DNA of 64,000 nucleotides from Acidobacteriota bacterium (GTDB taxonomy: Bacteria; Acidobacteriota; Blastocatellia; Pyrinomonadales; Pyrinomonadaceae), in the NCBI GenBank assembly GCA_016700175.1, contig CP065003.1, positions 1,805,238-1,869,237 of the forward strand, given 5' to 3'. Positions within the stretch are counted from its first letter, which is position 1. Each line of letters starts with the position of its first letter. A program made the position numbers and the translations under genes. The notes under the pieces were generated by a model, which searched no databases, was not told the origin of the DNA, and was given only the letters and a program-made list of their open reading frames with translations. This document shows positions 5,512 through 63,473 of this stretch, in pieces.

Positions 5512-7386
5512 ATGAGAATTACCGTACCCGCCTTTTTCCTCGCTCTTGTTCTTTTCGTTCCGACAGTTTTCGCACAGGATTCAGTGTCATCCGGAATGTC
5601 CTCGGCAGCTTCGAAGCCGTCGGGCGAGAAGTATTTCCCGCTTGGCGAGCTTAAGGAAGGTATGACCGGAAAGGCCCGGACTGTTTTCAGCGGGTCTGAA
5701 GCGACGGAGTTCGATGTCGAGATACTAGGCGTGCTTCCGGGATGGATCGGGCCAAAGCAGGACCTGATCGTCGGACGGATCTCGGGCGGCGGTGCGGACA
5801 GGACAAAGGTCTTCGCAGGAATGAGCGGCTCGCCGGTTTACATCAACGGGAAACTGGTCGGAGCGATCTCTTACGCGTTCCCTTTCTCGACCGAGGCGAT
5901 CTGCGGGATCACGCCGATCGAGCAGATGGTGTCGATCTTCGAGAATAACGACGCGGGAAAAGAAAGCGCTTCAAAACCGCGGTCCTATTCTTTCGCGGAA
6001 CTCGCCGCTTCGGAATGGAGGCCGAATCTTCCTGAGACTGCAAACCGTTTCGGCGCAGGCATTTATACCGGCGATGCATCTTCGCCTCTGGGTGTTCTTA
6101 CCAGCCAGACCTTCCGGCCGATCGCCGTGCCGGTCTCGTTCTCCGGATTCTCGCAAGCCACATTGAATGAATTTGCGCCCCAGCTTCTTAGATCCGGACT
6201 TCTTCCTGTTTCCGCTCCGGTCGGCACTCTGAGATCGAAGGAAATGAAAAAAGCCGACGAGACGACCCTTAACGGCGGCGATTCCGTGGTGATCCACCTT
6301 ACGAGCGGCGATTTTTCGATGGCGGCGAGCGGCACGGTGACGATGCGGGACGGCGATAAGATCTATGCGTTTGGCCACCCGTTCATAGGCGTCGGCGGTT
6401 CCTCGCTGCCTATGTCGGAATCGCACGTCGTTACGGTCGTGCCCAGCGTTAACAACTCCTTCAAGCTTGCCGTTCCGGATGCGATTGTCGGCTCGATGAC
6501 CCAGGACCGCGCCACAGGAGTGTACGGCAAACTTGGCGAGGCTCCCAGGATGATCCCGGTCCGTATGAACCTTCGCACGAGCCGAAACAAGCTCGAAACG
6601 CTCGAGTTCGAGATCGCGCACGACGAGACGCTTGCGCCGCTTCTTGTGAACATGGCGGTTTTCAACGCGATAATCGCGAACGAGCGTGCGCTCGGCAACA
6701 TGACGATCGAGGTCGACGGGAAGATAAGCCTGAAAGGTCACGAACCTGTCAAGATCGATGGAAGGTTCGGCGGACAGGCGGCGCTCCGGTTTGCCGCCGG
6801 CGCGGTCGTGGTGCCCGTCGGGAATCTCATTTCCGGCAGGTTTGACGATCTTCAGTTCGAAGGCATCGAGATCAATTTGACGACCGAAGAAGGCAACAAG
6901 GCCGCGGAACTGGAAAGGATCGTGGTCGACCGCACCGAGGCGAGGGCGGGCGAAACGGTTTATATTCAGGCGTTCGTGCGCGGTGATTCGGGCAAGTTAT
7001 TCACCCAGCGGATCCCGTTCACTATCCCTGCCGGCACACCCGCCGGAACTTTGACGATCGAGGTCGGAGACGGCTCGAGGCTTCAGGAAAAAGCCTCTGC
7101 AAAGAGGTTCGTCCCGGAATCGCTGGCGGATCTTATCAGCAAGATCAACGAGGTCCGCAAGAACGACCGTCTGTACGTCCAGTCTTACCGGACGACGAAG
7201 GGCGCGATCGTGGGCTCGGACGAGATGCCGAACCTTCCGCCTTCGGTCCTTGCGACGATGAACAACAACCGCACGTCCGGAGGCCACACGCCGACCGTCG
7301 AGACGCTCGTTTCGGAGATCGAGGTCGCGCCGGCGGAGTTCATAGTGACGGGTCAGCAGACGATCAAGATCGAGGTGGTGCGGTGA
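5512..7386 (+). CDS. secreted SpoIVB-like (peptidase S55) serine protease
   Basis: Signal peptide. GMSGSPVYINGKLVGAISYAF matches the catalytic-serine block of S55/SpoIVB peptidases. Confidence 0.7.
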   Translation: MRITVPAFFLALVLFVPTVFAQDSVSSGMSSAASKPSGEKYFPLGELKEGMTGKARTVFSGSEATEFDVEILGVLPGWIGPKQDLIVGRISGGGADRTKVFAGMSGSPVYINGKLVGAISYAFPFSTEAICGITPIEQMVSIFENNDAGKESASKPRSYSFAELAASEWRPNLPETANRFGAGIYTGDASSPLGVLTSQTFRPIAVPVSFSGFSQATLNEFAPQLLRSGLLPVSAPVGTLRSKEMKKADETTLNGGDSVVIHLTSGDFSMAASGTVTMRDGDKIYAFGHPFIGVGGSSLPMSESHVVTVVPSVNNSFKLAVPDAIVGSMTQDRATGVYGKLGEAPRMIPVRMNLRTSRNKLETLEFEIAHDETLAPLLVNMAVFNAIIANERALGNMTIEVDGKISLKGHEPVKIDGRFGGQAALRFAAGAVVVPVGNLISGRFDDLQFEGIEINLTTEEGNKAAELERIVVDRTEARAGETVYIQAFVRGDSGKLFTQRIPFTIPAGTPAGTLTIEVGDGSRLQEKASAKRFVPESLADLISKINEVRKNDRLYVQSYRTTKGAIVGSDEMPNLPPSVLATMNNNRTSGGHTPTVETLVSEIEVAPAEFIVTGQQTIKIEVVR

Positions 7387-7459
7387 GCTGTGAGCTGTGA
7401 GCTGTGAGCTGTGAGCTGTGAGCTGTGAGCTGTGAGCTGTGAGCTGTGAGCTGTGAGCG
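7383..7459 (+). repeat. heptamer tandem array (GTGAGCT) x10 plus 1 variant
   Basis: Counted unit by unit. The stop codon of the S55 peptidase gene (7384-7386) is inside unit 1. Confidence 0.97.
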
Positions 7460-7505
7460 AATGTAGCGATGCCCTGCGTGATGTCAAGAGCTTTCTCCTG
7501 CTTAC

Positions 7506-7568
7506 CGCTCACTGCTCACCGCTCACCGCTCACTTTTTACCGCTCACTGCTCACCGCTCACTGCGTAC
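7506..7568 (+). repeat. heptamer tandem array (YGCTCAC) x9, inverted partner of 7383-7459
   Basis: Units CGCTCAC/TGCTCAC with two degenerate units. This is the reverse complement of GTGAGCR. Confidence 0.95.
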
Positions 7569-8121: not shown

Positions 8122-8129
8122 GTCGGACC

Positions 8130-8220
8130 GCGGGCGTCCCCGCCCGCATTCCTCCGCGCATCCGCGCGGCGCAAACTGGAGTTCACGGTACCTCGAGGTA
8201 CGATAGGCTTCAGCCTGTCG
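8130..8220. repeat. mosaic of hairpin modules C, B (minus orientation) and D
   Basis: GCGGGCG-TCCC-CGCCCGC (8130-8147), module B reverse copy (8154-8194), CGATAGGC-TTCA-GCCTGTCG (8201-8220). Confidence 0.9.
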
Positions 8221-9684: not shown

Positions 9685-9761
9685 CACTCACTGCTCACCG
9701 CTCACGGCTCACTGCCCACTGCTCACTGCTCACTGCCCACTGCTCACTGCTCACCGCTTAC
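9685..9761 (+). repeat. heptamer tandem array (TGCTCAC/TGCCCAC family) x11
   Basis: Counted unit by unit. Overlaps the last 5 codons and the stop of the acyl-CoA ligase gene. Confidence 0.95.
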
Positions 9762-11342
9762 CTCTTTCTTAAGCGTCAACTTGTGGATCTTTCCCGTCCC
9801 GCCGATCGGGAGCTCGTCCCGGAACTCCACATAACGCGGATACTTGTTCGCCGCGAACTGCTCCTTGCACCAGTCGATGAACTCTTTCTCAGATAGCTCG
9901 GCTCCCTCGTTCAGGACGAGAAAAGCCTTCACTTCCTCTCCCATCTTCTCGTCCGGTACGCCGATCACGGCCACCAGAGACACCGCCGGATGCGTCATTA
10001 TCACTTCCTCGAGCTCGCGCGGATAGACGTTGTACCCACCGCGCAGGATCATGTCCTTCTTGCGGTCGACGATCTGCACGTAGCCGTCTTCGTCGATGAT
10101 CCCTATGTCGCCCGAATGGAACCAGCCGTTCTTGAAAGCTTCAGCGGTAGCCTCGGGCCGTTTGTAGTAGCCCTTCATCACGTTCGGACCGCGGATCACG
10201 ATCTCGCCGCGTTCGCCCGCCGGGACCGTCCTTCCTTCCTCGTCGACACACCGGACGTCCACACCCTGGATCGGCTGGCCGACCGTGCCGGGCTTCGAAG
10301 GCCTGTCGAAATGATTGAAGGTCGCGAGCGGCGATGTCTCAGACAAGCCGTAACCTTCGAGAATGCGCACGCCGAACATTTCGCCGAACTCGCGCATGAC
10401 TTCCACAGGCATCGGCGCGCCGCCGGAGGTCGGAACCTTGAAGAACTCTTTGATCTTCGACACGTCGCGGCCCGTCTGCTTCACGTACTGAAGAAGCGCC
10501 CAGTACATCGTCGGGACGCCGACCCAGAAGTTCACGCGCTCTTTTTCCATCGCGTCGAGCGTCGCCGCCGGATCGAACCTGGGGATCAAAACGACCCGGT
10601 TCCCCGCGAACATGTTCGTGTTCATCTGGACCGTCTGCCCGGTCGTGTGGAAAAGCGGAAGCGTGATCAGGCAGGTCATCTGACCGCCTCCGGTGAAATC
10701 CAGCACCGGAAGGTGAATGTTGTATGTCGTGCTTATGTTCGTGAAGAGGTTCAGGTGAGTGAGTTCCGCGCCTTTCGGCTGGCCGGTCGTGCCGGAAGTG
10801 TAAAGGATCGCGCAGGTGTCGTCCGGGTCCGTCGCGACCGTCTCGTACACGGCCGGCTTGTCATAGATCAGCTGGGTCAGCGTTCGATGGCCCTCGATCG
10901 GGCTCGGAGCAAGCTTGTCCGCCGTCATCACGACCAGGTGCTCGCATGTTCCGGCGCGGTCAAACCCTTCCTTGACCATCTGCGCCATGGGAAGTTCGTC
11001 CGTGCCTTCAAACACGAATACCGCCTTGGCGTCGGAATCCTCCAGGTGATACGCGATCTCCCTGGGCTTGAACAGCACGTTCAGAGGCACGACCGCGGCG
11101 CCCGCTTTGAGGATTCCGTAATAGACCATCGGAAAATACGGCAGGTTAGGACAGCTGAGCGCGACCTTGTCGCCCTTCTCGATCCCGAGTTCCCCGAGAG
11201 CGTGCGCGACGCGGTTCGCAAGCGCGTTCAGTTCCCCGTACGTCATCCTGACGTCGTTCCAGATCACCGCCTCCTTTTCAGGAGCGAGCCGCGCCTGATG
11301 CTCGATGATCGAGGCGAGATTTAACGTAGTTACTTTCCCCAT
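9744..11342 (-). CDS. long-chain fatty-acid--CoA ligase / AMP-dependent synthetase
   Basis: AMP-binding motif ILYTSGTTGQPKGA and the usual C-terminal GWFHSGD...GKI blocks. The last 5 codons and the stop lie in a heptamer array. Confidence 0.9.
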   Translation of the reverse strand: MGKVTTLNLASIIEHQARLAPEKEAVIWNDVRMTYGELNALANRVAHALGELGIEKGDKVALSCPNLPYFPMVYYGILKAGAAVVPLNVLFKPREIAYHLEDSDAKAVFVFEGTDELPMAQMVKEGFDRAGTCEHLVVMTADKLAPSPIEGHRTLTQLIYDKPAVYETVATDPDDTCAILYTSGTTGQPKGAELTHLNLFTNISTTYNIHLPVLDFTGGGQMTCLITLPLFHTTGQTVQMNTNMFAGNRVVLIPRFDPAATLDAMEKERVNFWVGVPTMYWALLQYVKQTGRDVSKIKEFFKVPTSGGAPMPVEVMREFGEMFGVRILEGYGLSETSPLATFNHFDRPSKPGTVGQPIQGVDVRCVDEEGRTVPAGERGEIVIRGPNVMKGYYKRPEATAEAFKNGWFHSGDIGIIDEDGYVQIVDRKKDMILRGGYNVYPRELEEVIMTHPAVSLVAVIGVPDEKMGEEVKAFLVLNEGAELSEKEFIDWCKEQFAANKYPRYVEFRDELPIGGTGKIHKLTLKKEVSGEQ

Positions 11343-11410
11343 TTTCGTTCAAGACGTAAATTGAAGTGATGGTAAGACTTGCGAGTGGAGACAAGTCTAT
11401 TTCCTTAAGG

Positions 11411-11472
11411 GTTCAAAGTTCAAGGTTCAAAGTTCAAAGAGGCGAGCCGTGAGCAGTGAGCGGTGAGCAGTG
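11411..11472 (+). repeat. (GTTCAAR) x4 followed by (GTGAGCR) x3
   Basis: 11411-11438 and 11449-11472. Two word families lie side by side. Confidence 0.9.
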
Positions 11473-11576
11473 TTCGAAGCCTACGGGGTCCAACGAGTGG
11501 CACAAATTACAAGAATCATACTTCAATGACTTGGTGTCAGGTGCTGCGGATCCGGCGCGATATGTGAAGGGCCGAT

Positions 11577-11723
11577 TCTTGAATTTTGAACCTTCAACCT
11601 TGAACTTTGAACTTTGAACCTTGAACCTTGAACCTTGAACCTTGAACCTTGAACCTTGAACCTTGAACTTTGAACTTTGAACCTTGAACCTTGAACCTTG
11701 AACCTTGAACTTTGAACCTTGAA
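11577..11723 (+). repeat. heptamer tandem array (CYTTGAA) x21
   Basis: 147 nt equals exactly 21 units. It is the inverted partner of 11411-11438. The 74-aa tracked ORF here is just its translation. Confidence 0.97.
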
Positions 11724-19334: not shown

Positions 19335-22300
19335 CTACGTCCCGAATTTGGCGCGGATCTTCACCGCCCGTTCGAGCCCGTCGACGTTCTCCAGGATCTT
19401 CCTTTTCAGGTCGGCATCAAGCTTTGGATTCGCTTCCAAAAAACGGTTCACGATCTGCAAGGCCTCTTCGCTCTTCTGCCCGCCGATGAACGAGCCGAGC
19501 CAATTGTTCACGAAGAAGATCTTTCGGTTGCGTTTCAAAGCCGGCAGTTCGGCGAGCGCTTCGTCGAGATAAGGGAGCGTAAGTTCCGAATGCGAAGGCG
19601 AATTCCAGACGCCCGACGCCTCCTCGATCCAGCTTTCGGAGATCTCCTTGTTCTCGGTGAAATCCTTCCAGTACTTCGCCTTGTTCTCTTTAGTCGCGAA
19701 TCCCGCCTTCGCGGCGTATGCCCAACGGAGCGCCGCGTCGTCCTTCTCGGTCTTTTCGAGCTCGGCGAGGAACTTCGCCCCGTCCGGATCGCCGGCGACT
19801 ATCAGGCGCGTGGCGATGTCGAAGCGGTCTTTCGGGCGGACAGGAAAGGGAGTACTGAGAGATGAGTACTGAGTACTGAGATTGCCCCCTGAATTGAGGT
19901 TCAGGTTTGAGTCTGTGGGCCCCTTCTCAGTCCTCAGTACTCTCTTCTCAGTACTCGAACCGCCTTCGGCTTTTGCTGGGCTACCATCCGTCGCTCCTCC
20001 GGAGCGAAGATCGACACCCGTCTCCGGTCTTCGGTCTCCCGTCTCCTGACTTCTGACTTCTGACTCCTCTGCCCCGTCTCCCGTCTCCGGTCTTCGGTCT
20101 CCCGTCTCCGGTCTTCGGTCTCCCGTCTCCTGACTTCTGACTTCTGACTCCTCTGCCCCGTCTCCCGTCTCCGGTCTCCCGTCTCCCTTGCGGAACAGTT
20201 CCTTCAGCGCCGCCCTCGCCCTTTCTCCTTTCGCAACGCCCAGCAAGGCTCGGAAATACGTGATCCTCTGCCCTACGGTCGGCGCGCCGTAGATCTTGTC
20301 GACAAGCAGCGCCTCGAGCTTCTGCGTGACCTCGTCCTGCTGTTTTTCCGAAAGGTAATACGTATAGGCGTACGCCACCCGGCCGAGGATCGACGAGATC
20401 GTCGTCTCGTCCTTCTCGATGTCGATATTCGCGATCGCGAGGTTTATGTAATCGAGCGGCGCGAGCTCGGCGAACCGGACCGAATCCCAGAGGCTGCCCC
20501 ACATCTGCGCGCGGAAAAACTCGTCCTTCTCGTCTCGTATGTTCTTGAGGATGTAGTTCCGGCTCTTTTCATCGAGCAGGAAAATCCCATAGCCGTAATC
20601 GCGGTAATTGGGGAATATCAGAATGGTCTTGCGCTCGTTTAACTTCGGTGGCTCAGACGAGTAATCGTCCTTTTTCTTGGCTTCGCTCTCATCGTCAAGA
20701 GGAAAGAGAAACTCCCTGCGTCTTGTGATCGAGTTGGATTCAAGGTCAGGCAACCTCGCATACGCTCTGTACCCAATTGGAATTCTTTCGATTCTCGTTT
20801 CACCATTCTCAAATACTCTGAGAACTTGAATATCCTGAAGCCAGTTGTAGTTAGCTTCGGGCAATATCGGCTCTTGAAGCATGTAGTCATTGAGAACAGT
20901 ATGTCCTCCATGGGCTCCGCATGAACGAGTAAATCCTGGGAGATCAGCAATGGGATTCGGGTCGCTCATCAAACAGTCTGACGGGCGATAAACGGCGGTT
21001 CCGGGCTTCGAAACCCAGTACCATGCCCACTCACTTCTCACGTGCCACTTGGTGAAATCAATCAGCGCTTGCTTGTCGGAATCACTTAGCTTCTTGAAGA
21101 ATTCTCGCTCAGACTCCTTTCTCACCCGAATGTAGGCGATTTCGTCCACTAGATCATGCCAGGTTGCGTTTCCGAATTCATGGCTATTCAGAAATTGACG
21201 TACAGCCTCCCTGAAAATCTCCTCGCCCCAAAAGAACTCAGCTTGCTTTAAGAACGATGGGGCCTTCTGATACACGATATTTCCGTAAGCAGATTTTGCC
21301 GCGCTCAAGTTCGGGAGTTCTTGATGGATTGGAGTAGTCCCACTTGTAACGTCTGTTTGGTAAGCGGCGCTCTTAGTCCGCTGATAGAAGACCTTCCAGG
21401 GATCGTATTCGGGAAGGACCTTCTCCATCGTCTTGTACGCCATGAACGTGGCGAATCCTTCCTTCAGCCAAAGGTCGTCGAACCACTTCATCGTGACCGT
21501 GTCGCCGAACCACTGGTGGGCCGCCTCGTGAAAGATGACCGACGCGCGCGAGATGTAGTTGTTCGCGGTCGGTTCGGTCGGGAAAATGACGGACGTCTCG
21601 CGGAGGAACGTCGCGCCTGCGTGCTCCATTCCGCCGAAAGGAAATTCGGGGATCAAGACGACATAGTACTTCGGAAACGGGAAAGGGTAGTCGAAATAGT
21701 CCTCGAGATACTCGATCGCCTCGCGGTTGAGGCGGAATACCTCTTCGACCGGAGCGACTGGAGCGCGGGCGCTTGGACCGCGGGCGTCCTCGCCCGCATC
21801 TGTGTTCCCGACTGGAGCGCGGGCGGCCTCGCCCGCATCCGCCGCCTGTGGCGGCAAGAGTTTATGCGCCTGTGATTTCCGGACGAAGATACGAATCGGA
21901 ACGCGGTCGGAGGGCCCGTCGCTACCGCTCCGGGTACTGAGTGGCTCCTGAATCACCTCAAACGGTCCCGCCGCGAACGCGAAAACGTAAGTACTGATCG
22001 GCTTAGTTTCTTCAAAGCCGACGTACCGACGCTCTGCTAGTTTCTTACGGTATTCTTCGGCTTCGCTTCTTACGGAGGGTCCGATGCCGGGCCGCGTACG
22101 TGAAGTATCGATACCTCCATTGCTAATCGCGACCCAGTCCTTCGGAATATCCATCGACAACAGGAAGCGCGCTTTCAAATCCGGTTGATCAAAGACCGGG
22201 AAGGCCGTCGAAGCATCCGAGGGAACGAATAGCGAGTAGATATACTCTGAGCCATCCTCCGTGTCTTTGTATCTCGTCACCGCGGCTCCCGACGTCAGGA

Positions 22301-22712
22301 TCGGTGAACTAAAATTGAGGACTAACTTGTTTCGGCCTTGCCGCACGCCTTTTCGAAATATCAAATGCTCTTCTACTTCAACGAATTCCGCTTCACGATC
22401 ATTCAGCCTTACGTAGGAGAGGGTTGAGCGTTGTTCGTGACCCGCGATTTTCCGCCAATCAAGCACGATCGGGACATCCTCGTCGGAGGATTCCTTGCGG
22501 ATGTCCACTGAGATCTCCAGTCTTCCTTCGAGTCTGTCCGACGCTTTCTCAGTCCAATCGATCCAAACATCGACCTTGTATCGGACATTTGAATAGTGCT
22601 CGGCGCGCCATTTTGCGAGCTCGAGCGGGACGCCCGGCTCGATCGAAGGAGCTTGTGCGTTTGCGGTCATGGCAAAAAAGAAGAGGGCGAAGATTCCCAA
22701 GAGTATTTTCAT
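19335..22712 (-). CDS. M1-family zinc aminopeptidase, secreted, with repeat-derived inserts
   Basis: Signal peptide, exopeptidase motif GGMEHAG, zinc motif HEAAHQWFGD followed by WLKEGFATF. At 1125 aa it is much longer than usual because of low-complexity inserts. Confidence 0.85.
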   Translation of the reverse strand: MKILLGIFALFFFAMTANAQAPSIEPGVPLELAKWRAEHYSNVRYKVDVWIDWTEKASDRLEGRLEISVDIRKESSDEDVPIVLDWRKIAGHEQRSTLSYVRLNDREAEFVEVEEHLIFRKGVRQGRNKLVLNFSSPILTSGAAVTRYKDTEDGSEYIYSLFVPSDASTAFPVFDQPDLKARFLLSMDIPKDWVAISNGGIDTSRTRPGIGPSVRSEAEEYRKKLAERRYVGFEETKPISTYVFAFAAGPFEVIQEPLSTRSGSDGPSDRVPIRIFVRKSQAHKLLPPQAADAGEAARAPVGNTDAGEDARGPSARAPVAPVEEVFRLNREAIEYLEDYFDYPFPFPKYYVVLIPEFPFGGMEHAGATFLRETSVIFPTEPTANNYISRASVIFHEAAHQWFGDTVTMKWFDDLWLKEGFATFMAYKTMEKVLPEYDPWKVFYQRTKSAAYQTDVTSGTTPIHQELPNLSAAKSAYGNIVYQKAPSFLKQAEFFWGEEIFREAVRQFLNSHEFGNATWHDLVDEIAYIRVRKESEREFFKKLSDSDKQALIDFTKWHVRSEWAWYWVSKPGTAVYRPSDCLMSDPNPIADLPGFTRSCGAHGGHTVLNDYMLQEPILPEANYNWLQDIQVLRVFENGETRIERIPIGYRAYARLPDLESNSITRRREFLFPLDDESEAKKKDDYSSEPPKLNERKTILIFPNYRDYGYGIFLLDEKSRNYILKNIRDEKDEFFRAQMWGSLWDSVRFAELAPLDYINLAIANIDIEKDETTISSILGRVAYAYTYYLSEKQQDEVTQKLEALLVDKIYGAPTVGQRITYFRALLGVAKGERARAALKELFRKGDGRPETGDGAEESEVRSQETGDRRPETGDRRPETGDGAEESEVRSQETGDRRPETGVDLRSGGATDGSPAKAEGGSSTEKRVLRTEKGPTDSNLNLNSGGNLSTQYSSLSTPFPVRPKDRFDIATRLIVAGDPDGAKFLAELEKTEKDDAALRWAYAAKAGFATKENKAKYWKDFTENKEISESWIEEASGVWNSPSHSELTLPYLDEALAELPALKRNRKIFFVNNWLGSFIGGQKSEEALQIVNRFLEANPKLDADLKRKILENVDGLERAVKIRAKFGT
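19851..19960. repeat. inverted GTACTGA-type heptamer arms inside the M1 aminopeptidase CDS
   Basis: AGTACTGAGAGATGAGTACTGAGTACTGAG ... CTCAGTCCTCAGTACTCTCTTCTCAGTACT. Translated in frame as ...STEKRVLRTEKGPTDSNLNLNSGGNLSTQYSSLST... Confidence 0.9.
20019..20186 (+). repeat. 24-unit heptamer array inside the M1 aminopeptidase CDS
   Basis: Units CGTCTCC/GGTCTTC/GGTCTCC/TGACTTC/TGACTCC/TCTGCCC in unbroken phase. 168 nt = 24 x 7 = 56 codons. Confidence 0.95.
21756..21840. repeat. two module-C hairpins inside the M1 aminopeptidase CDS
   Basis: GCGGGCG-TCCT-CGCCCGC (21780-21797) and GCGGGCG-GCCT-CGCCCGC (21819-21836). The same hairpin occurs at 8130-8147 and 51015-51032. Confidence 0.9.
21910..21940. 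repeat. fragment of the 39109-39296 element arm inside the M1 CDS
   Basis: GAGGGCCCGTCGCTACCGCTCCGGGTACTGA compared with AGAGGGCCGGTCGCTACCGCTCCCGGTACTGA. Confidence 0.8.
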
Positions 22713-22927
22713 TTCAAAATCTTGAGGGAGAGTGCAATTTCTATTCGGCGCAAATCTCTACGCACGAAGGTCTAACCACAAAGGTCACTGAGGTTTTCAC
22801 AAAGGGCACGAAGAGAACAGGTAGTTTCACGAAGCCTTCTGTCTAATGGTGAACATTCTACCGCAAGGAATGGCATTCATTGATCAGGTCTCAATTTCCT
22901 GATCGTCAACCGCAGAAATAGAGGCTT

Positions 22928-23072
22928 CCCTCTCTGTGTTCTTCGTGAAATCCTCTGTGCGCTCTGTGGTGAATTCTTCTCTGACAAAATGCACGCGCCC
23001 GCCATCCTGGAAAACAAAAAAGACACTCCCGTAAGGAAACGTCTCGGTCAGATCGGGTTGTATCGGGTCAGG
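22928..23072 (+). repeat. 145-bp direct repeat, copy 1
   Basis: Aligns by eye with 23141-23284 (offset 213 nt). Contains CTCTGTG words and a minus-strand terminator. Confidence 0.9.
23009..23044 (-). terminator. intrinsic terminator (minus strand), copy 1
   Basis: The minus-strand RNA reads AGACGUUUCC-UUAC-GGGAGUGUCU (10 bp including G.U pairs) followed by UUUUUUGUUUUCC. It lies inside a 145-bp direct repeat. Confidence 0.6.
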
Positions 23073-23140
23073 AATCAGGTGTCAGGTGTCAACGGTCAGG
23101 TATCAAGCGCCGGAGCGTCAAACTATGTACACAAAGCATC

Positions 23141-23284
23141 GCCCTCTGTGATCTCTGTGAAAACCTCTGTGTGCTCTGTGGTTAACTCTTCTTTGACAAA
23201 ATACAAGCGCCCGACATCCGGGAAAACAAAAAAGACGCTCCCGTAAGGAAACGTCTCGGTCAGATCGGGTTGGATCGGGTCAGG
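23141..23284 (+). repeat. 145-bp direct repeat, copy 2
   Basis: See 22928-23072. Confidence 0.9.
23220..23255 (-). terminator. intrinsic terminator (minus strand), copy 2
   Basis: The minus-strand RNA reads AGACGUUUCC-UUAC-GGGAGCGUCU followed by UUUUUUGUUUUC. On the plus strand the same stem would have C.A mismatches. Confidence 0.65.
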
Positions 23285-23359
23285 GAGCAATGGTCAGGTA
23301 TCGAGGATCACGTATCAGCGGCTCGAGGCTCTCAGTACTCGCGGTAGCCCTCCCTCACG

Positions 23360-23598
23360 GTCGGGCTTCGGACACGGGCTCAATCGACCTCTCCTCTTCT
23401 CATGTGCTGCGCAAGCGCTGCTCTAAACGGGCGCGAGTCGGGCTTCGGACACGGGCTCAATCGACCTCTCCTCTTCTCATGTGCTGCGCAAGCGCTGCTC
23501 TAAACGGGCGCGAGTCGGGCTTCGGACACGGGCTCAATCGTCCTCTCGCTTCCCTCATGTGCAGCGCAAGCGCCGCTCTAAACGGGCGCGAGTCGGGT
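23360..23598 (+). repeat. 77-bp tandem repeat x3.1
   Basis: The GTCGGGC anchor recurs at 23360, 23437, 23514 and 23592. Each unit holds a module-A hairpin (GCTGCGCAAGCGCTGC) plus CTCTAAAC. Confidence 0.93.
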
Positions 23599-23696
23599 CA
23601 CTCTCAGTACTCAGCACTCATCTCTCAGTACTCAGTACTCAGTACTCAGTACTCAGCACTCATCTCTCAGCACCGCTCACCGCTCACTGCTCACAG
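23599..23696 (+). repeat. 14-unit heptamer array (AGTACTC family merging into GCTCAC family)
   Basis: Counted in phase from 23599. The TonB stop codon (23691-23693) lies in the last unit. Confidence 0.93.
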
Positions 23697-25106
23697 ATTG
23701 AAATTGAAGCTGATGAATCCCGTAGCCTTTACCGGCTGGCCGTCGCGCGTGAACGGTCGGAACTTCCATTTCCTGACAGCGTCTTCCGCCGCGCGGGTCA
23801 GCATCGGAGGCCCGTCAGCGTTATTGACCTCCGCCACCGAGCCGTCTTCGTCAACGATGATCTTCACCGTCACGACACCCGTAAGGCGCATCGTCCTCGC
23901 CTGGCGCGGATAGATAGGGCTCACGCGGCGCGTCGCATATCCAATCAGAGACCCGATCGGAAGAGGCCCCGTCGGTTCTTCTACAGAGCTGTCCTTTTCG
24001 GTAACATCGTCCGCCGTAAGCGCACTCTTCACGTTCGGCTGGTCTTCCGGATCGGCCTCGCGGCTTTCGTCACGCTTGGCAGACCCTATGACGCGCACCG
24101 GCCTGTCGTTCGGATCGAGGTCCTTGTCGACCTTTGCCGGCTCAGGATCCTTTTTCACTTCTTCAGGCTTCTTCGCGACAGTGTTCGAGGCCGGCTTGTT
24201 CTCTTCTCTTGGGGGAGTTCTTTCGAGCGGGATAGGAATAGTTTTCCGTTCCGGCTTCTTCTCCGCGACCGTGTCAGCGGCGGGGATCGCAGCAAGCGGT
24301 TGCTCCGCGGGCTTCTCGTCCTCTTCGATCACCGCCAGATCGTCGCTGTCGATCTTCGAAGAAGCGACATCCGCCTCCTTTTCTTCAACCGGCGGCGGAT
24401 TCGTCGCGCTCAGGATAACGCTCCTCGACGCGACCATCTGCTCGCGCGCGTCAGCAAGCTGGTCTTTCCACTGTTTGGCGTCGTATGCGTCCCGCGCAAG
24501 CGCTCCGCGGGCGGAACTCGATTCTTCGAGAAGGGCCGAAGCGTTGGACTGCAGATCTTTGTCGGCGGTCATCGACTTCGAATGCTCGATGACCATCTCG
24601 AGCGTCTCGCGCATTCCCTGGATGTCGGCGATCGCGACGGTCGGCAGGTTGCGGTCGTTGATGTTCAGACCGAGCGATCTGTACCGATCAGACTGCGACC
24701 TCGCGCTGTTCACTACCTGGCCCGCGACGGCAAGATAGTCGAAAGACGCGTCCGACCCCTTCGAATCCTGCGATTCCTTCAAAAGGGACTTTGCCTTCGG
24801 GTAATCCGAAAGCTCGAGATACGCGTGCATCAGAAGGACGTTCACGACGCGGTTCACAGCCGGCTCCGTGTTCTCGCGCTTGATGTTCTCAAGCTCGTAG
24901 ATCGCCGCCGCAAAATTGCGCACCGCCAGCAACGCCTTCGATTTGGAGATGCGCTCGCGCATCACCTCGGCGGACGTAGGCGCCTTCTCGATCGCCGCCT
25001 TGGCGATCGTAGTGTCAGCTGGCGTGTTTTCCTGGGAAAAGGTCTGAAAAGAAAGGCTGAGTATGAATGCAAAAATAAAGACCGGTAATACGGTTCTCTG
25101 GGACAT
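23691..25106 (-). CDS. TonB-family protein with N-terminal TPR-like region
   Basis: Signal/anchor, Pro/Glu/Lys-rich linker and C-terminal TonB domain (YPRQARTMRLTGVVTVKIIVDEDGSV...). Confidence 0.8.
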   Translation of the reverse strand: MSQRTVLPVFIFAFILSLSFQTFSQENTPADTTIAKAAIEKAPTSAEVMRERISKSKALLAVRNFAAAIYELENIKRENTEPAVNRVVNVLLMHAYLELSDYPKAKSLLKESQDSKGSDASFDYLAVAGQVVNSARSQSDRYRSLGLNINDRNLPTVAIADIQGMRETLEMVIEHSKSMTADKDLQSNASALLEESSSARGALARDAYDAKQWKDQLADAREQMVASRSVILSATNPPPVEEKEADVASSKIDSDDLAVIEEDEKPAEQPLAAIPAADTVAEKKPERKTIPIPLERTPPREENKPASNTVAKKPEEVKKDPEPAKVDKDLDPNDRPVRVIGSAKRDESREADPEDQPNVKSALTADDVTEKDSSVEEPTGPLPIGSLIGYATRRVSPIYPRQARTMRLTGVVTVKIIVDEDGSVAEVNNADGPPMLTRAAEDAVRKWKFRPFTRDGQPVKATGFISFNFNL

Positions 25107-37061: not shown

Positions 37062-37124
37062 GTTCAAGGTTCCAGGTTCAAGGTTCAAGATTCGCGGTTC
37101 AAAATTCCAGGTTCAAAGTTCAAA
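37062..37124 (+). repeat. heptamer tandem array (GTTCAAG family) x9
   Basis: Starts 4 nt after the gpmI stop codon. Same word as 11411-11438. Confidence 0.93.
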
Positions 37125-38255: not shown

Positions 38256-38445
38256 GACCGAAATGTATCACTGGTTGGGATCTCGACTCCAGCAAGTTGG
38301 GGAAGTTTACTAAAGAGCGGGAGATCGAACACCGATACCCATTGGCCGCTGATCGCTGAACACTGACCACTGACGGTTGGACACCTTCGCCCCCTCCTTG
38401 CTACGCTTCATCTTTCATTTTTTCCACCCGAGGAATTCCTGCCAG

Positions 38446-39069: not shown

Positions 39070-39108
39070 TAAATCGTGAATTGTGAACGGTGTCGATAGC
39101 GCCGGGGT

Positions 39109-39296
39109 TCATCAGTACCGGGAGCGGTAGCGACCGGCCCTCTTTGCTGAATATGTTAGGAAGTGGTAATACGTTTTCGGCGCCGTGGCATCGAGACCAC
39201 GAACATACTCATATAACAGAAATCAAAGTGATTCCGAACGTATTGAATCGAAATGGGCTGAAGAGGGCCGGTCGCTACCGCTCCCGGTACTGATGA
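39109..39296. mobile_element. MITE-like element, 188 bp, 36-bp perfect terminal inverted repeats
   Basis: TCATCAGTACCGGGAGCGGTAGCGACCGGCCCTCTT (39109-39144) has its exact reverse complement at 39261-39296. The centre is AT-rich and 116 bp long. No transposase is present. Confidence 0.55.
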
Positions 39297-39339
39297 GCCA
39301 GGGCTACTGACACCTTCCTCAATTTTCAATTCCCAATTC

Positions 39340-42110: not shown

Positions 42111-43133
42111 ATGTTGAGATCACTTGTCATAGCTTCTTTCTTCTCGATTTTCTGGATAACACCGTTGAAGTCGTATTCGCCGCGGTTCGTTTCATCCGAG
42201 ACGTGTTCGCGCTCCGCGCTCAATGCAGCGCAAAGCGCTGCTCCAAACGGGCGCTGTCTGACGCGCGGGGTTCCGCTTTCGCCTGGGCTCCTTCTTTCCG
42301 GCGAAAAGCCGGACTTCCTGAAGATCGTCAGCGCAAAGCTGGAGAAACAGCACGGGATCGGCCTTTTCGAGGCGTGTTCTGTCAACGACGACCTCGGTGC
42401 CGAGACGGTGTTCAGGGAGTACGGCGCAGTGTTTGTCGCGGAGGGTGTGACCGTACCTTCAAAGTGCATCTTTGCCACCGAAGCGGAGGTCACGGCGTTT
42501 CAGTCGAAACTGGAAACAAGCACGCGATCGGTCGGCGGGACAACGATCACGCTCCAGAGACCGGCGATGGACGCTTTGATCGCGGCGAGAGAAGCGGCCC
42601 GCAAATCAGGGCTTTCGATCACGCCCCGCGGAGGCCCGAACGCCGCCTCGAGGAGTTTCGCGACGACACTGCGGTTCTGGAACTCGAGATTATATCCCGG
42701 CCTCGAGCACTGGAAACGGCAGGGCAGGATCACGGCGAAAGACGTCGCCGACATCCGCAAAGCCACTATTCCCGAACAGGTAGATAAGGTGCTCAGGTGG
42801 GAGCAGGAAGGTATATACTTCGCGCGAGGATTTTCGAAATCGATACTCTATTCCGTCGCGGCGCCCGGCGCGTCGCAGCACATCTCGATGCTTGCCCTGG
42901 ATGTGACCCAGTTCGGCAACGGGCGTGTCAGGGAGATCCTTGCGAAGCACGGCTGGCACAGAACGGTTCTCAGTGACCTGCCGCATTTTACCTATCTCGG
43001 CGTGCCGGAAAACGACCTGCCGAGACTCGGGCTGGAGAAGAAAACGTCGGGAGGCGAGGTTTTCTGGGTACCGGATCTCAGGACTGAGAAAGAAGGACTG
43101 AGGACTGAGAACGGCACGGGCGAGGTACGATAG
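42111..43133 (+). CDS. M15-family (VanY/D-Ala-D-Ala carboxypeptidase-like) peptidase
   Basis: SQHISMLALDV (SxHxxxxAxD) and DLPHFTYLG metal-ligand motifs. Start is uncertain. The last ~17 codons and the stop lie in repeat sequence. Confidence 0.65.
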   Translation: MLRSLVIASFFSIFWITPLKSYSPRFVSSETCSRSALNAAQSAAPNGRCLTRGVPLSPGLLLSGEKPDFLKIVSAKLEKQHGIGLFEACSVNDDLGAETVFREYGAVFVAEGVTVPSKCIFATEAEVTAFQSKLETSTRSVGGTTITLQRPAMDALIAAREAARKSGLSITPRGGPNAASRSFATTLRFWNSRLYPGLEHWKRQGRITAKDVADIRKATIPEQVDKVLRWEQEGIYFARGFSKSILYSVAAPGASQHISMLALDVTQFGNGRVREILAKHGWHRTVLSDLPHFTYLGVPENDLPRLGLEKKTSGGEVFWVPDLRTEKEGLRTENGTGEVR

Positions 43134-44417: not shown

Positions 44418-44444
44418 CCACGTTGGCCGCTCGGGCCGCTGCGT

Positions 44445-44563
44445 GAGGACTGAGGACTGAGGACTGAGGACTGAGGACTGAGGACTGAGGACTGAGGACT
44501 GAGGACTGAGGACTGAGGACTGAGGACTGAGGACTGAGGACTGAGGACTGAGGACTGAGGGAA
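44445..44563 (+). repeat. heptamer tandem array (GAGGACT) x16 plus 1 variant
   Basis: 112 nt of perfect units were counted. The 97-aa tracked minus-strand ORF is its translation. Confidence 0.97.
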
Positions 44564-44598
44564 GATAATCTATATGAATCGAGTGTCAAATATTTTGC

Positions 44599-44665
44599 TC
44601 AGTCCTCAGTCCTTTCGTCTCATTCCTCGCTTCTTTCTCAGTCCTCAGCCCTTTTATCTCAGTAC
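44599..44665 (+). repeat. degenerate CTCAGTC-type array, inverted partner of 44445-44563
   Basis: CTCAGTCCTCAGTCCTTTCGTCTCATTCCTCGCTTCTTTCTCAGTCCTCAGCCC... It ends 10 nt before the kinase ATG. Confidence 0.85.
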
Positions 44666-48202: not shown

Positions 48203-48258
48203 GAGGACTGAGGACTGAGGACCGAGGACTGAGGACTGAGGACCGAGGACTGAGGACT
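48203..48258 (+). repeat. heptamer tandem array (GAGGACT/GAGGACC) x8
   Basis: Counted unit by unit. Confidence 0.95.
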
Positions 48259-48280
48259 GAAAGAAATTCATTTCCAAATT

Positions 48281-48301
48281 GATAGTTGATAGTTGATAGT
48301 T
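48281..48301 (+). repeat. heptamer tandem array (GATAGTT) x3
   Basis: GATAGTTGATAGTTGATAGTT. Confidence 0.9.
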
Positions 48302-48437
48302 GCGAGACCCGTATTTTCAGGCTTGGACAGCGCGTGCACTGGCAAGGATTTGCGATCAAAGACAATTCATCAATTTCCAATTTTCCATTGTCAATTAGCC
48401 TCAGACCTCAGTCCTTTTATCTCAGCCCTGAGTAGCT

Positions 48438-50943: not shown

Positions 50944-51195
50944 GTTTAGAGCAGCGCTTCGCGCTGCCGAGGTAACGCGAAATTCAGTTTGCGCCGCGCG
51001 CAAGCGCGGAACGTGCGGGCGAGGACGCCCGCGGTCTAAGGCGACAAGCTGAAGCTTGTCGTACATCTGTTTCGAACAGCGCTTCGCGCTGCGGAAGTAA
51101 CGCGAACTTCAGTTTGCGCCGCGCGTAAGCGCGGGACCACATCGGCACTTCGGGCCGCGGGCGGCCCGCGACAAGCTGAAGCTTATCGTACAACC
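50944..51195. repeat. tandem duplication of a four-module hairpin mosaic (A-B-C-D) x2
   Basis: First set: A 50944-50968, B 50969-51011 (loop GCAA), C 51015-51032, D 51042-51061. Second set: A' 51068-51092, B' 51094-51136 (loop GTAA), C' 51151-51168, D' 51169-51188. Confidence 0.92.
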
Positions 51196-55278: not shown

Positions 55279-55480
55279 TTCAGGTCCCTGGAAGTACGGA
55301 GAATCGGTTGTTATTTGGCCGCACGGATGGCGCGAATGAACAGAACCTTAGCACAGAGCGGTTGAAGGTTGAATGTCCTGAACCGGTTCGCAGACCATAA
55401 AACTGCGGGCACCCGCGGGATATCGCCGTTCAGGGAACGCTTCGCAATGTCCCGTTGCCAAGCTCGGTAAGAGTAAATTA

Positions 55481-55593
55481 ACAGGGATGAAGGGAGTGAA
55501 GGAGATTTCGGCGATTGTGTGTCAACGTTGAATGGTACTTCGGAGCGTTCGGGCCCGGCATTAGCCATCTCCTTCACCCCCTTCATCGCTGTT
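55481..55593. repeat. palindromic element P1, copy A
   Basis: Arms AACAGGGATGAAGGGAGTGAAGGAGAT and ATCTCCTTCACCCCCTTCATCGCTGTT. Confidence 0.9.
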
Positions 55594-55606
55594 TCAAGAG
55601 TTAGAA

Positions 55607-55782
55607 GAAACAGGATCGACAAGATGAAAAGGATTGATAGTTGAGAATTGAAAGTAGGGGATTCTACAATCCCGGATCCGGTTCCTAAAGTGGCTACTGG
55701 CTTGGTTTGAAATCAATCCGGTCCAACTACCATTCCCAATTCTCAATTCTCAATTTTTTTCATCCTGTCTATCCTGTTTTTT
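55607..55782. mobile_element. MITE-like palindromic element P2, copy A (176 bp)
   Basis: About 50-nt arms GAAACAGGATCGACAAGATGAAAAGGATTGATAGTTGAGAATTGAAAGT and ...CCCAATTCTCAATTCTCAATTTTTTTCATCCTGTCTATCCTGTTTTTTC. Confidence 0.6.
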
Positions 55783-55795
55783 CAATTCGTCTTTC

Positions 55796-55954
55796 GAAAC
55801 AGGATCGACAGGATGAATAGTATTAATAGTTGAGGATTGAAAGTGGGAGATTCCACGATCCCGCACGCGGTTCGTGAAGTGATTACTGGATTAGCCTGAG
55901 ATCAAAAGGGCCCAACGACCATTCCCAATTCTCAATTCTTAACTATCAATCCTG
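55796..55954. mobile_element. MITE-like palindromic element P2, copy B (right arm truncated)
   Basis: Same arms as 55607-55782. The kinase stop codon 55946-55948 lies in the right arm. Confidence 0.55.
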
Positions 55955-59450: not shown

Positions 59451-61658
59451 ATGTACTTAGTAAATTTAAGATCAGGACTTGTAGGAATTTGCGTGCTTGC
59501 AGCCGCCGTTTTCTCGGTTCAGGCCATACAGGCGGCGACTTTCACCGTGACCAACACAAATGACAACGGGGCGGGGAGCCTGCGCCAGGCGATACTCGAT
59601 GCCAACGCCTCACTGGACGCGGATGTGATCCAGTTCGACGCGGGTGTATTCAGCACGCCGCAGACCATCACGCTCACGACCGAAGAACTCTATATAGACA
59701 GCAACATCACGATAAACGGCCCCGGAGCGGGCCTCCTGAGCATTTCCGGAAACGATCAGTTCCGGAATATTCTCATCAGGGGGATCAAGGCCCCGATAAC
59801 CGTTGCGATCAACAATGTGACGATCAGGGACGGGTACGCTGCAGGAGGGCCCGGCATAAGGGTGAACGCGTCCGACACCGATCTGAGAGTCACCCTGAAC
59901 ATCGACAGCGTAGTGCTGCTGGACAACGAGGGCAATAGCGGCGCTCTGGGCGGCGGGATCATGATCTTCGGAAACGGCGACCTGAGCGTCAACGATTCCA
60001 TATTTCGCGGAAACATCGGAAATGGGGGCGGAGGCATTAGCTGCGGCGGCGGCGGCGGTGCGTGCCTCAATGTGAGCATTACAAACACGCTGTTCGAAGC
60101 GAACCAAGGTGGTTCCGTCGGAGGAGCGGGTTTCGGGTGCTGCGGAAACGGCACGCCCGAGTCGCCGATCGTTTTGGAAAACGTCGCGTTTATACGAAAT
60201 GTGACGGGAAACAATGGCAGTGCGGTCAGGCTCTCATCGGGGCCGAACACGCTCTTCGAATTCAAGAATGTAACGGTCGCGCACAATACTTCGGTGATAG
60301 GGGCCGCAATGATACTCCAGTTCGGCCAATTCTCTTTCGAGAACTCAACCATCGCCTACAACAAGAGCACGGAACCAAATGACTTCCGAACGATAGGGAT
60401 ACTCTCTCAATGGGGCGATTCTGTATTGTCCTTCCGCAACACGATCGTTGCCAAAAACTCGAATGTAAACGGCGTCGATAGGGACCTGGACGTTCAGGAT
60501 CGCGTATTCGGCAGCCTCAACTCTCTTGGTTACAACATCTTCGGGTCGCTCGTCGGGACGACCGCGGTTGAAGGCGACACAACGGGCAACCAGATAGGGG
60601 TCGATCCGGGCCTCTACTTCATCCCTCAAGGCACAGGCAGCCCGCTGATGACAATGGCCCTGGTTCCCGGCTCCCCGGCGATCGACGCCGGCGATCCGGG
60701 TAATTTCCTCGCTACTGACTCGCGCGGCGTTTCCCGTCCGGTCGACGGAGACGGGAACGGTTCCGCGCTCCCGGACATAGGAGCCTACGAGAGAACGTCT
60801 GCCGACCTGATACCTCTGAAGCCCGTGTTTGATTTTGACGGCGATGCCAGGACCGATGTGTCCATCTTCAGACCAGGCGCAGACCCGGCGCAGTGGTGGT
60901 TCCTTCGTTCCTCTGACCAGGGCACGCGAGGACTCCAGTTCGGAAGTGCTTCTGATACTCCGGTCGCGGCCGATTTTACGGGCGACGGAAGAACGGATAT
61001 CGCGTTCTGGCGGCCTTCGACCGGCCAGTGGTTCATTCTTCGGAGCGAGGACGACTCTTTCTTCGCGTTCCCATTCGGAGCGCCCGGCGACATTCCTGCT
61101 CCTGGGGATTTCGATGGGGACGGAAAAGCCGATCCGGCTGTCTACAGGCCTTCGGCCGGGACGTGGTTCATATACCGTTCGTCGAACGGGGCCGTTTCCG
61201 CAGTTACTTTCGGGGTCGCGACCGACAAACCGATCGTGGCGGACTACGACGGGGACGGGAAGGACGACATAGGCGTTTACCGTTCGCCCGACAACCAGTT
61301 CTGGCTTCTTAGAAGCAGTCTCGGCGTGAAGGCCTATCAGTTCGGAGCCCCGGGAGACCGCACGGCGGTCGGGGACTGGACGGGAGACGGAAAGGCCGAC
61401 GTGGCATTCTTCAGGCCTTCAACTTCAGAGTGGTACGTGATCAGGAGTGAGGACGACTCGTTCTTCGCGTTCCCCTGGGGAGCGACGGGAGACATCCCGA
61501 GCCCGGGAGACTTCGACGGCGACGGTCAGACCGATCCCGCGGTCTGGAGACCTTCCGACAATACGTGGTACATCTTCGGCTCGACGAACGGCTTCGAGGC
61601 GGTGCTCTTCGGGGCGACGGGAGATGTCCCGCTGCCAAGCTCGGTAAGCGTAAATTAA
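59451..61658 (+). CDS. secreted beta-helix (CSLREA/choice-of-anchor-Q-like) protein with C-terminal FG-GAP/VCBS repeats
   Basis: Signal peptide, NTNDNGAGSLRQAILDAN motif, right-handed beta-helix-like repeats, then about 8 DFDGDGKxDxAxxRPSxGxW repeats. Confidence 0.8.
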   Translation: MYLVNLRSGLVGICVLAAAVFSVQAIQAATFTVTNTNDNGAGSLRQAILDANASLDADVIQFDAGVFSTPQTITLTTEELYIDSNITINGPGAGLLSISGNDQFRNILIRGIKAPITVAINNVTIRDGYAAGGPGIRVNASDTDLRVTLNIDSVVLLDNEGNSGALGGGIMIFGNGDLSVNDSIFRGNIGNGGGGISCGGGGGACLNVSITNTLFEANQGGSVGGAGFGCCGNGTPESPIVLENVAFIRNVTGNNGSAVRLSSGPNTLFEFKNVTVAHNTSVIGAAMILQFGQFSFENSTIAYNKSTEPNDFRTIGILSQWGDSVLSFRNTIVAKNSNVNGVDRDLDVQDRVFGSLNSLGYNIFGSLVGTTAVEGDTTGNQIGVDPGLYFIPQGTGSPLMTMALVPGSPAIDAGDPGNFLATDSRGVSRPVDGDGNGSALPDIGAYERTSADLIPLKPVFDFDGDARTDVSIFRPGADPAQWWFLRSSDQGTRGLQFGSASDTPVAADFTGDGRTDIAFWRPSTGQWFILRSEDDSFFAFPFGAPGDIPAPGDFDGDGKADPAVYRPSAGTWFIYRSSNGAVSAVTFGVATDKPIVADYDGDGKDDIGVYRSPDNQFWLLRSSLGVKAYQFGAPGDRTAVGDWTGDGKADVAFFRPSTSEWYVIRSEDDSFFAFPWGATGDIPSPGDFDGDGQTDPAVWRPSDNTWYIFGSTNGFEAVLFGATGDVPLPSSVSVN

Positions 61659-61770
61659 CAGGGATAGAGGGGGTGAAGGAGATTTCGGCGACCCAGCAGT
61701 AACGTTGAATGGTACTCCGTAGCGTTCGCGCTCGGCACTAGCCATCTCCTTCAACCCCTTAATCCCTGTT
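61657..61770. repeat. palindromic element P1, copy B
   Basis: Left arm 61657-61683 (AACAGGGATAGAGGGGGTGAAGGAGAT) starts within the TAA stop (61656-61658) of the FG-GAP gene. Right arm ATCTCCTTCAACCCCTTAATCCCTGTT. Confidence 0.9.
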
Positions 61771-61783
61771 TCAAGAGGCAGAG

Positions 61784-61960: not shown

Positions 61961-61971
61961 AATTCCTCTCT

Positions 61972-63461: not shown

Positions 63462-63473
63462 TAATAAACAGAT

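Follow-up and report, generated by a model that had tools for sequence, protein, structure and literature searches.

The M1 aminopeptidase gene

The stretch of DNA analysed here (the window; 64,000 nucleotides of contig CP065003.1 from an Acidobacteriota bacterium of the family Pyrinomonadaceae) carries on its minus strand, at 19335..22712, an intact gene for an M1 family zinc aminopeptidase of 1125 amino acids, in one loop of which about 340 bp of dispersed repeats is read in frame as a nest of three elements. This gene is the host of all the repeat inserts described below. The original prediction, made from the letters alone, that the repeats leave its open reading frame (ORF) of 1125 codons unbroken was borne out, and all domains and motifs of the family were found in it. 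Matches above the cut-off were obtained in Pfam to Peptidase_M1_N (PF17900), Peptidase_M1 (PF01433) and ERAP1_C (PF11838), and the four-domain M1 architecture (N-terminal beta, thermolysin-like catalytic, ERAP1-like helical C-terminal) was recovered by Pfam together with Foldseek.

The zinc-binding motif H395-E-A-A-H399 ... E418 (HExxH-x18-E; 21459..21530, minus strand) and the exopeptidase motif G360-G-M-E-H364, a variant of GxMEN with N replaced by H (21621..21635, minus strand), were both located in the translation. In an alignment of 108 orthologues H395, E396, H399 and E418 were invariant, as were G361, M362 and E363, and H364 was nearly so. The product is an ordinary M1 family aminopeptidase of predicted activity. 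The protein begins with a signal-peptide-like N-terminus, MKILLGIFALFFFAMTANA followed by QAP (22650..22712, minus strand), and hydrophobic N-termini are conserved among the aligned orthologues; the peptidase is accordingly predicted from its N-terminus to be exported. A protein search returned 6223 homologues, the closest 82% identical, and the relatives belong to the Acidobacteriota, in the Pyrinomonadaceae/Aridibacter group. The conserved C-terminal 165 codons (amino acids 961-1125; 19338..19832, minus strand) form the second half of the ERAP1_C helical domain, align to residues 725-879 of the solved homologue 7v9o, and are the part that an out-of-frame slip in the repeats would detach.

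Repeat elements within the gene

The first of the three elements in the direction of transcription is a heptamer array (20017..20187, minus strand), which was delimited by Tandem Repeats Finder (TRF), a repeat search and a list of units, with ends uncertain by about 3 nt. As originally predicted it has 24 units, and these are of six types (on the coding strand, GGAGACG x9, GGAGACC x4, GAAGTCA x4, GAAGACC x3, GGAGTCA x2 and GGGCAGA x2). TRF reported for this segment a period of 7 with 24.4 copies and a 76% match, and also a period of 84 with 2.0 copies and a 97% match; the array thus consists of two 84-nt copies that are identical at 82 of 84 positions. The longest perfect run measures 20 nt (2.86 units) for period 7, 55 nt for period 21 and 161 nt for period 84. 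The translation is a peptide of GDGRPET/GDRRPET/EVRSQET type, GDGRPETGDGAEESEVRSQETGDRRPETGDRRPETG, as had been quoted correctly. A second minus-strand ORF (19981-20502) had been noted across the array and does exist; in fact all three minus-strand frames are open there, because 7 and 3 are coprime, and the same heptapeptide is read in every frame. No Pfam family was found in ORF 19981-20502, and as arrays of this kind are open in all frames it was rejected as a second gene.

Next to the array lies a third dispersed element of 56 nt (19961..20016, minus strand), which encodes VDLRSGGATDGSPAKAEGG and contains a small hairpin, CGCTCC-GGA-GGAGCG (19992-20006). It is 94% identical over 50 nt to a segment (L001:3999-4048) located in another loop of the orthologous gene P0002, from a metagenome-assembled genome (MAG) of Aridibacter famidurans, and its peptide also occurs in the orthologue alignment.

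The remaining element, predicted as a palindromic pair and confirmed by the repeat search, is an inverted heptamer pair on the minus strand with arms of 32 nt (19850-19881 / 19925-19956) that are 88% complementary and 43 nt apart. As RNA of the mRNA strand it would fold into a long hairpin of -66.1 kcal/mol (z = -6.15; 0 shuffles as stable). Reading it as an internal terminator was dropped, since the scan gave no intrinsic-terminator-like site near the hairpin on the coding strand, and an Rfam scan of the window returned 0 families. The mRNA-proximal arm (19925..19956, GAGTACTGAG..., encoding SSTEKRVLRTEK) stands in the TGA-bearing orientation and is degenerate, with TGA triplets at 19950 and 19929 in frame 2, at 19936 in frame 1 and none in frame 0. 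The 43-nt spacer that forms the loop (19882..19924, encoding GPTDSNLNLNSGG) is unique, no copy of it being found in the window or in 85 fetched loci. The distal arm (19850..19881, CTCAGTACTCAGTACTCATCTCTCAGTACTC) encodes LSTQYSSLSTP and adjoins the conserved PFPVRPKDRFDI, and its DNA and peptide are both present at the equivalent position in the orthologues of loci L002 and L003. Over the full length of the composite insert a single frame stays free of stops, namely the coding frame, by which the two conserved halves of the gene are joined.

The 56-nt element and two further repeat-derived segments of the gene, at 21772-21836 and 21910-21940, had been overlooked in the original prediction. The former of the two (21772..21836, minus strand) comprises two hairpins resembling repetitive extragenic palindromic (REP) sequences (GCGGGCG-N5-GCCCGC), which encode DAGEAARAP and DAGEDARGP and have intergenic copies at 8125-8149 and 51014-51040. 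The latter (21910..21940, minus strand) is the terminal-inverted-repeat (TIR) core of an element resembling a transposable element of the miniature inverted-repeat type (MITE); it encodes TRSGSDGPS in frame and is 94% identical to 39112-39142 and 39263-39293, which are both arms of a 204-bp palindromic element at 39101-39304.

Relation to intergenic repeats of the window

The statement that both repeat types otherwise occur between genes holds within the window, where the GAGTACT arm of the gene has an intergenic copy at 23595-23670 and the CTGACTT-type units of its array match intergenic DNA at 63676-63743, apart from short arrays at two ORF ends. The window contains 27 period-7 arrays, many of them as inverted pairs a few tens to about 200 nt apart. 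Those of at least 4 units outside the M1 gene all lie between genes or overlap a stop codon, and two very short ones (38356-38374, 2.7 units; 43094-43109, 2.3 units) fall in the final ~40 nt of long ORFs. Intergenic heptamer arrays were located at 7383-7561, 9687-9758, 11405-11723, 23603-23694, 37062-37123, 44444-44663, 48203-48302 and 63469-63743, and perfect runs of 6.6, 7.9, 10.9 and 16.7 units occur among the intergenic arrays. When the window was compared with itself, the M1 gene was the only convincing gene with short dispersed repeats inside.

TGA is present on one strand in 15 of the 18 heptamer families of the window, about 18% being expected for random heptamers of the same composition, a comparison limited by the fact that the 18 families are not independent. 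Three families lack TGA on both strands, and most of the in-gene array is of one of these, GGAGACG/CCCGTCT; the GAAGTCA units of the array stand in the open orientation. That the array fits in the ORF is due to the GGAGACN family, which makes up most of it and offers a stop codon on neither strand.

The loop in orthologues

The distance between the anchors GQRITYYR and KDKFDI is 139 amino acids here; among the 100 orthologues with a mappable loop it is at its minimum of 32 amino acids in 22, and mostly 32-65. In the solved homologue 7v9o, which can be aligned to residues 693-837 and 964-1120 of the protein, the aligned parts are separated by about 20 amino acids, compared with 127 here. From the minimal loop of the orthologues and the short loop of 7v9o it follows that roughly 107 amino acids (321 nt) have been inserted. 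The orthologues are 898 to 1277 amino acids long, differing by what is inserted at a small number of loops.

DNA was fetched for the five closest orthologues, which are syntenic, and all five carry different in-frame inserts (58, 82, 106, 116 and 74 amino acids) at exactly the same site, composed of the repeat words found here. Each of these inserts opens with GGAGACN heptamers right behind LKELFRxG, and those of L002 and L003 close with an identical arm, CTCAGTACTCAGTACTCATCTCTCAG..., that encodes LSTQYSSLST. The interiors differ from one orthologue to the next, being composed of other heptamer families, REP-like hairpins and MITE-like pieces, and the arrays have 4-12 units. The original explanation, by which the frame survives solely through a unit count divisible by three, was therefore over-simplified; divisibility by three is required of the composite as a whole. 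The gene order Amidohydrolase, TonB_C, M1, LytTR regulator, histidine kinase is complete only in L001, the remaining loci having retained either TonB_C–M1 on the upstream side or M1–LytTR/kinase, with an SDR gene downstream instead in L002, L004 and L005.

More distant Pyrinomonadaceae have other REP-like peptides in the same loop (NTLPTGRVSAS, PPASAGG...NAAGSD and PPPLLGKEGS), and the same elements recur between genes and in other loops of the orthologous genes. Since the site is shared and the interiors differ, it was occupied before the species diverged and its content has turned over since. An insertion confined to the present lineage had been proposed; the insertion itself is supported by the minimal loops, whereas its restriction to this lineage is not, the site having been occupied before the Aridibacter-like clade diverged. 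To judge from the aligned sequences, the loop is a general hotspot for repeat inserts.

A search with the insert peptide alone matched only short domain-less ORFs over (GGAGACN)n arrays of other organisms and revealed no other host protein families. A profile search of genome contigs with the orthologue alignment gave, among the matches listed, mostly distant M1 genes and no closest relatives. As a side observation, P0121-P0137, short domain-less 'hypothetical proteins' from many metagenomes, are ORFs over (GGAGACN)n arrays (GDRRPETGDRRPET...); such arrays are widespread and are translated by gene callers.

Compared with its closest orthologue, P0002 of L001, the M1 gene is also a mosaic. The catalytic domain shows a non-synonymous difference of 1.5%, and the N-terminal 250 codons one of 26% with synonymous sites saturated. 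Residues ~527-690 of the M1 protein and of P0002 are of the P0017/P0025/P0030 type, unlike the P0003-P0006 type. These sequence patterns suggest recombination between lineages.

Structure and selection

The structure was predicted with AlphaFold2 using the 108 orthologues, and a model with a predicted template modelling (pTM) score of 0.82 was obtained. Residues 853-951 have a predicted local distance difference test (pLDDT) score below 50 and no secondary structure, the helices flanking the insert (830-843 and 960-972) are confident, and the C-terminal 165 residues have pLDDT mostly above 90. The other repeat inserts (residues 262-265 and 301-318) are of low confidence as well, with pLDDT below 50 for 301-318. 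With Foldseek, target-normalised TM scores of 0.85-0.86 were obtained for superposition over the whole length on the M1 enzymes EryP (7v9n) and M. tuberculosis APN (8t41). From this whole-length superposition and the confidence of the flanking regions it follows that the helices downstream of the insert are an integral half of the C-terminal domain. In the insert 86% of the residues are polar or disorder-promoting, against 56% in the rest of the protein, and its net charge is -9.

Selection was estimated against the same five orthologues as the ratio of non-synonymous to synonymous substitution rates (dN/dS). All 165 codons downstream of the insert align without gaps (165/165) and give a dN/dS of 0.07-0.10, equal to that of the catalytic domain (0.06-0.09). 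For the insert the value is 0.38-0.67, a soft estimate because the insert alignments are poor.

Possible slippage of the array

The predicted effect of gaining or losing one or two units, detachment of the C-terminal part, was reproduced by simulation: changes of +/-7 or +/-14 nt gave proteins of 905-930 amino acids that lack the C-terminal ~165 residues, and changes of +/-21 or +/-84 nt kept the frame. In six orthologous genes 37 TRF rows of period 7, a few of them overlapping, were recorded within the ORF, all of them in frame and with at most 4.43 perfect units.

Alleles split by a frameshift were sought with the C-terminal 170 amino acids as query, and all of the 120 matches listed (120/120) were short C-terminal-only proteins of 146-298 amino acids. 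Three matches on long contigs were examined (L098-L100, long-read metagenome contigs from ENA), and in these error-rich assemblies the M1 gene is split up among 4-6 small ORFs, a homopolymer (e.g. GGAAAAAGACG in L099) being the site of at least one of the breaks; the neighbouring genes are fragmented in L100 and intact-looking in L098. These breaks look like assembly indel errors and not biology, and the matches on short contigs look like partial genes at contig edges. The C-terminal-only proteins were for these reasons rejected as evidence of phase variation. Metagenome contigs matched by an exact 20-mer flanking the array came from 12 loci, none of them related to the gene, and are chance matches.

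Interpretation of the insert

The most probable reading is that the insert is tolerated as a disordered linker, in a permissive loop of an M1 aminopeptidase that a soil-type acidobacterium would export. Three nested dispersed elements, the heptamer array, the short hairpin element and the inverted heptamer-array hairpin, lie between two helices of the C-terminal (ERAP1_C) domain, in a loop that is permissive by nature, and would be translated there as an acidic, glycine/serine/threonine/arginine-rich disordered linker. Colonisation of the loop would predate divergence of the Aridibacter-like clade, and slippage, unequal recombination and new insertions may later have turned over its content, so that only variants that keep the frame and are free of stops would have survived. 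Such variants alone are expected to survive because the downstream half-domain is needed, and for the same reason an out-of-frame slip would be a plain loss of function that selection removes, as against a regulated switch. The proximal, TGA-bearing arm is degenerate enough to leave exactly one frame open, the one in use, and the single open frame through the composite may be read as the outcome of selection on insertions and on later mutations.

Several points weigh against this interpretation. The orthologues entered the comparison as full-length called proteins, a bias against frameshifted alleles; short-read MAGs may collapse long perfect arrays, and intragenic runs in the orthologues are perhaps underestimated; the search for sequencing runs gave 0 runs of the source organism and one related activated-sludge run; and low pLDDT is to be expected of the model in a lineage-specific insert even if it is folded.

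The original prediction had left the choice between a tolerated linker and a slippage-controlled switch. The linker is favoured by the five in-frame inserts, the purifying selection downstream and the low model confidence of the insert; the switch is unlikely, as no more than 2.86 identical units stand in a row. In favour of a contingency locus, where slippage by one or two units would flip the peptidase at high frequency between the complete protein and one that is null or truncated at the C-terminus (phase variation), are the unit length not divisible by 3 in an ORF, which such loci need there or in a promoter, the truncated product given by simulation, and a host protein that looks exported from its sequence. 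The tract is moreover dynamic (24 units here against 4 in the close relative L001), and intragenic heptanucleotide tracts have been proposed as mediators of phase variation in H. influenzae (PMC2651432). What the array lacks is the long tract of identical units, its longest run of 20 nt (2.86 units) falling short of the 8-14 units of the H. influenzae examples and of the 16.7 units reached among intergenic arrays of the window, and its long perfect registers of 21 and 84 nt preserve the frame. All six genes (6/6) are in frame, a count biased by the mode of finding, the downstream domain is held at a dN/dS of 0.07-0.10, and the C-terminal-only fragments are contig-edge partials or come from multiply broken long-read contigs, so that phase variation at this locus is judged improbable. 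About equally improbable is a segment selected for a function of its own, such as a flexible spacer, a charged envelope tether or a protease-accessible hinge, with adaptive in-frame length variation in steps of 21 or 84 nt comparable to that of surface proteins with variable-number tandem repeats. Occupation of the site across the clade, the retention at its edges of GDRRPETGD-type and LSTQYSSLST peptides in several species, the recent in-frame duplication of 84 nt and an insert dN/dS below 1 would fit such a segment; yet a share of the orthologues has no insert at all and the content is not conserved among close relatives. The DNA repeats by themselves account for the retained peptide words, a heptamer array giving one heptapeptide in every frame, and the unreliable alignments of the insert make its dN/dS soft.

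That the repeats mark an assembly error or a pseudogene, with a long ORF that is merely fortuitous, is very hard to credit. Repeats of this kind do break short-read assemblies: the related activated-sludge run (X1) yielded only short contigs, which end at repeats (19840, 20463 and 21754), and many database fragments begin in this loop. Nevertheless, 1125 codons are read without a stop and every catalytic motif is intact; of the three frames just one passes through the composite, that which links the conserved halves; the same architecture occurs in five independent assemblies; and strong purifying selection acts on either side of the insert.

A wider and rather speculative possibility, to which we give little credence, is that a few surface loops of Pyrinomonadaceae M1 enzymes are lineage-wide landing pads that capture, again and again, the dispersed hairpin repeats of each genome. 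Arrays captured in the Aridibacter-like clade would then be a length-variable module changing at a low rate, mostly in frame and sometimes knocking out the C-terminal half-domain, and the many TGA-bearing hairpins at gene ends would perhaps constitute a repeat system of functional relevance that has yet to be described, such as frame-independent stop/terminator cassettes, of which the in-gene copy would be a rare stop-free escapee.

Comparison with known repeat systems

The insert has the features that describe an in-frame insertion of dispersed repeats: the family is dispersed with intergenic copies, the insert is absent from some orthologues (32-amino-acid loops; 7v9o), and the frame and the downstream part are kept functional, as indicated by dN/dS and by packing in the AlphaFold2 model. 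The key feature of a contingency locus, a long perfect tract, is missing. The closest analogy is offered by the Rickettsia palindromic elements (RPEs), whose insertions into protein-coding genes keep the frame (Ogata et al. 2000, reviewed in PMC10969869). As far as these are described in the account drawn on here, they too are a dispersed palindromic family with intergenic and intragenic copies, the intragenic ones are read in one fixed frame that yields a recognisable peptide, insertion takes place where it is compatible with the fold of the host protein, and one element is found at different sites of related genes. Within the same account they differ in having a unit of about 150 bp, whereas here tandem heptamers and several unrelated repeat types are nested in one loop; the present host, moreover, is a free-living acidobacterium. 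The comparison is one of analogy and not of membership, the heptamer-based structure making homology implausible.

Intragenic insertions of REP, enterobacterial repetitive intergenic consensus (ERIC), BOX and MITE sequences, which create in-frame fusions (Delihas 2011, PMC3184786; PMC10969869), also appear close by analogy, as normally intergenic stem-loop repeats that are tolerated in coding sequence. Those are usually single, whereas at least 5 repeat-derived segments lie in the one gene here and the hotspot loop is common to a family of species.

By type the repeats belong with the bacterial heptanucleotide long simple-sequence repeats. Examples are the TAACTGA repeats, known from Beggiatoaceae, cyanobacteria and Bacteroidetes, in which all three frames meet a stop in the forward orientation (MacGregor 2015, PMC4679880), and the GGGAATC repeats of Xanthomonas and Nostoc (Rehm 2015, PMC4692102). 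The presence of TGA on one strand in 15 of the 18 families of the window recalls the TAACTGA repeats. In common with these, the arrays are abundant, mostly intergenic and in part inverted pairs; read in one direction, every one of the three frames is stopped, the opposite direction is open, and the open orientation occurs occasionally in ORFs, with the heptapeptide LSVISYQ there and LSTQYS(S/V) here. Unlike in those systems, many heptamer families coexist in the window and the arrays are typically hairpin pairs just after gene 3' ends, and the intragenic case lies in the middle of a conserved domain, whereas theirs is peripheral, at a protein terminus.

The intragenic tracts of H. influenzae, such as (AATTTTG)14 in hmw1A and (AACAACC)8-13 in the HI1369 homologue (Power et al. 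2009, PMC2651432), have 8-14 identical units, and both their unit number and their frame differ between strains (PMC2651432). The present array resembles them as a heptamer tract in the ORF of an exported or surface protein, in which a change of unit number shifts the frame. Those tracts are long and perfect, whereas six unit types are mixed in the present one and identical units follow each other 2.86 times at most; none of the six genes showed an allele out of frame.

The phenomenon is thus already known in kind, and the present gene is an example of it outside Rickettsia and cyanobacteria, in which selfish or slippage-born repeat DNA has been absorbed as a disordered loop into an essential-looking domain. 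It illustrates the properties that let a heptamer array live in a gene (units of a family free of stops, degeneracy, and higher-order periods that keep the frame) and that one loop can be a hotspot common to many species, and it explains the fragmentation of such genes in short-read metagenome assemblies and the inflated number of 'hypothetical protein' calls. The insert alone reveals no new regulatory mechanism; of greater interest may be the wider pattern of hairpins that TGA-bearing heptamer arrays form at the ends of genes in this genome.

Other repeats in the window

Heptamer arrays of many unit families abound in the window, and often they form inverted pairs (hairpins) directly behind gene 3' ends. 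The TGA stop codon of ORF 5512..7386 (plus strand) comes from the first unit, GTGAGCT (7383-7389), of a perfect array of 10.9 units, and the stop codons of ORFs 9744..11342 and 23691..25106 (both minus strand) are overlapped by the arrays at 9687-9758 and 23603-23694, respectively.

The region from the TonB_C gene to the start of the M1 gene (22713-23690, ~980 bp) is unusually long for an upstream region and consists almost wholly of repeats: a 212-bp unit x1.8 (22932-23317), a 77-bp unit x3.1 (23360-23597) and heptamer arrays (23603-23694). The 204-bp MITE-like element at 39101-39304 has 44-nt terminal inverted repeats that are 93% complementary; besides the in-frame copy in the M1 gene (21910-21940, TRSGSDG), its TIR core has copies in several orthologue loops. 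Nested palindromic repeat clusters occur at 55447-55939 and 61624-61982, with arms of ~53 nt composed of ATTCCCA/ATTCTCA heptamers and AAACAGGATCGACAGGATGAA-type repeats, and similar clusters are present in at least 3 places (55604-55849, 61785-61956 and 63506-63666).

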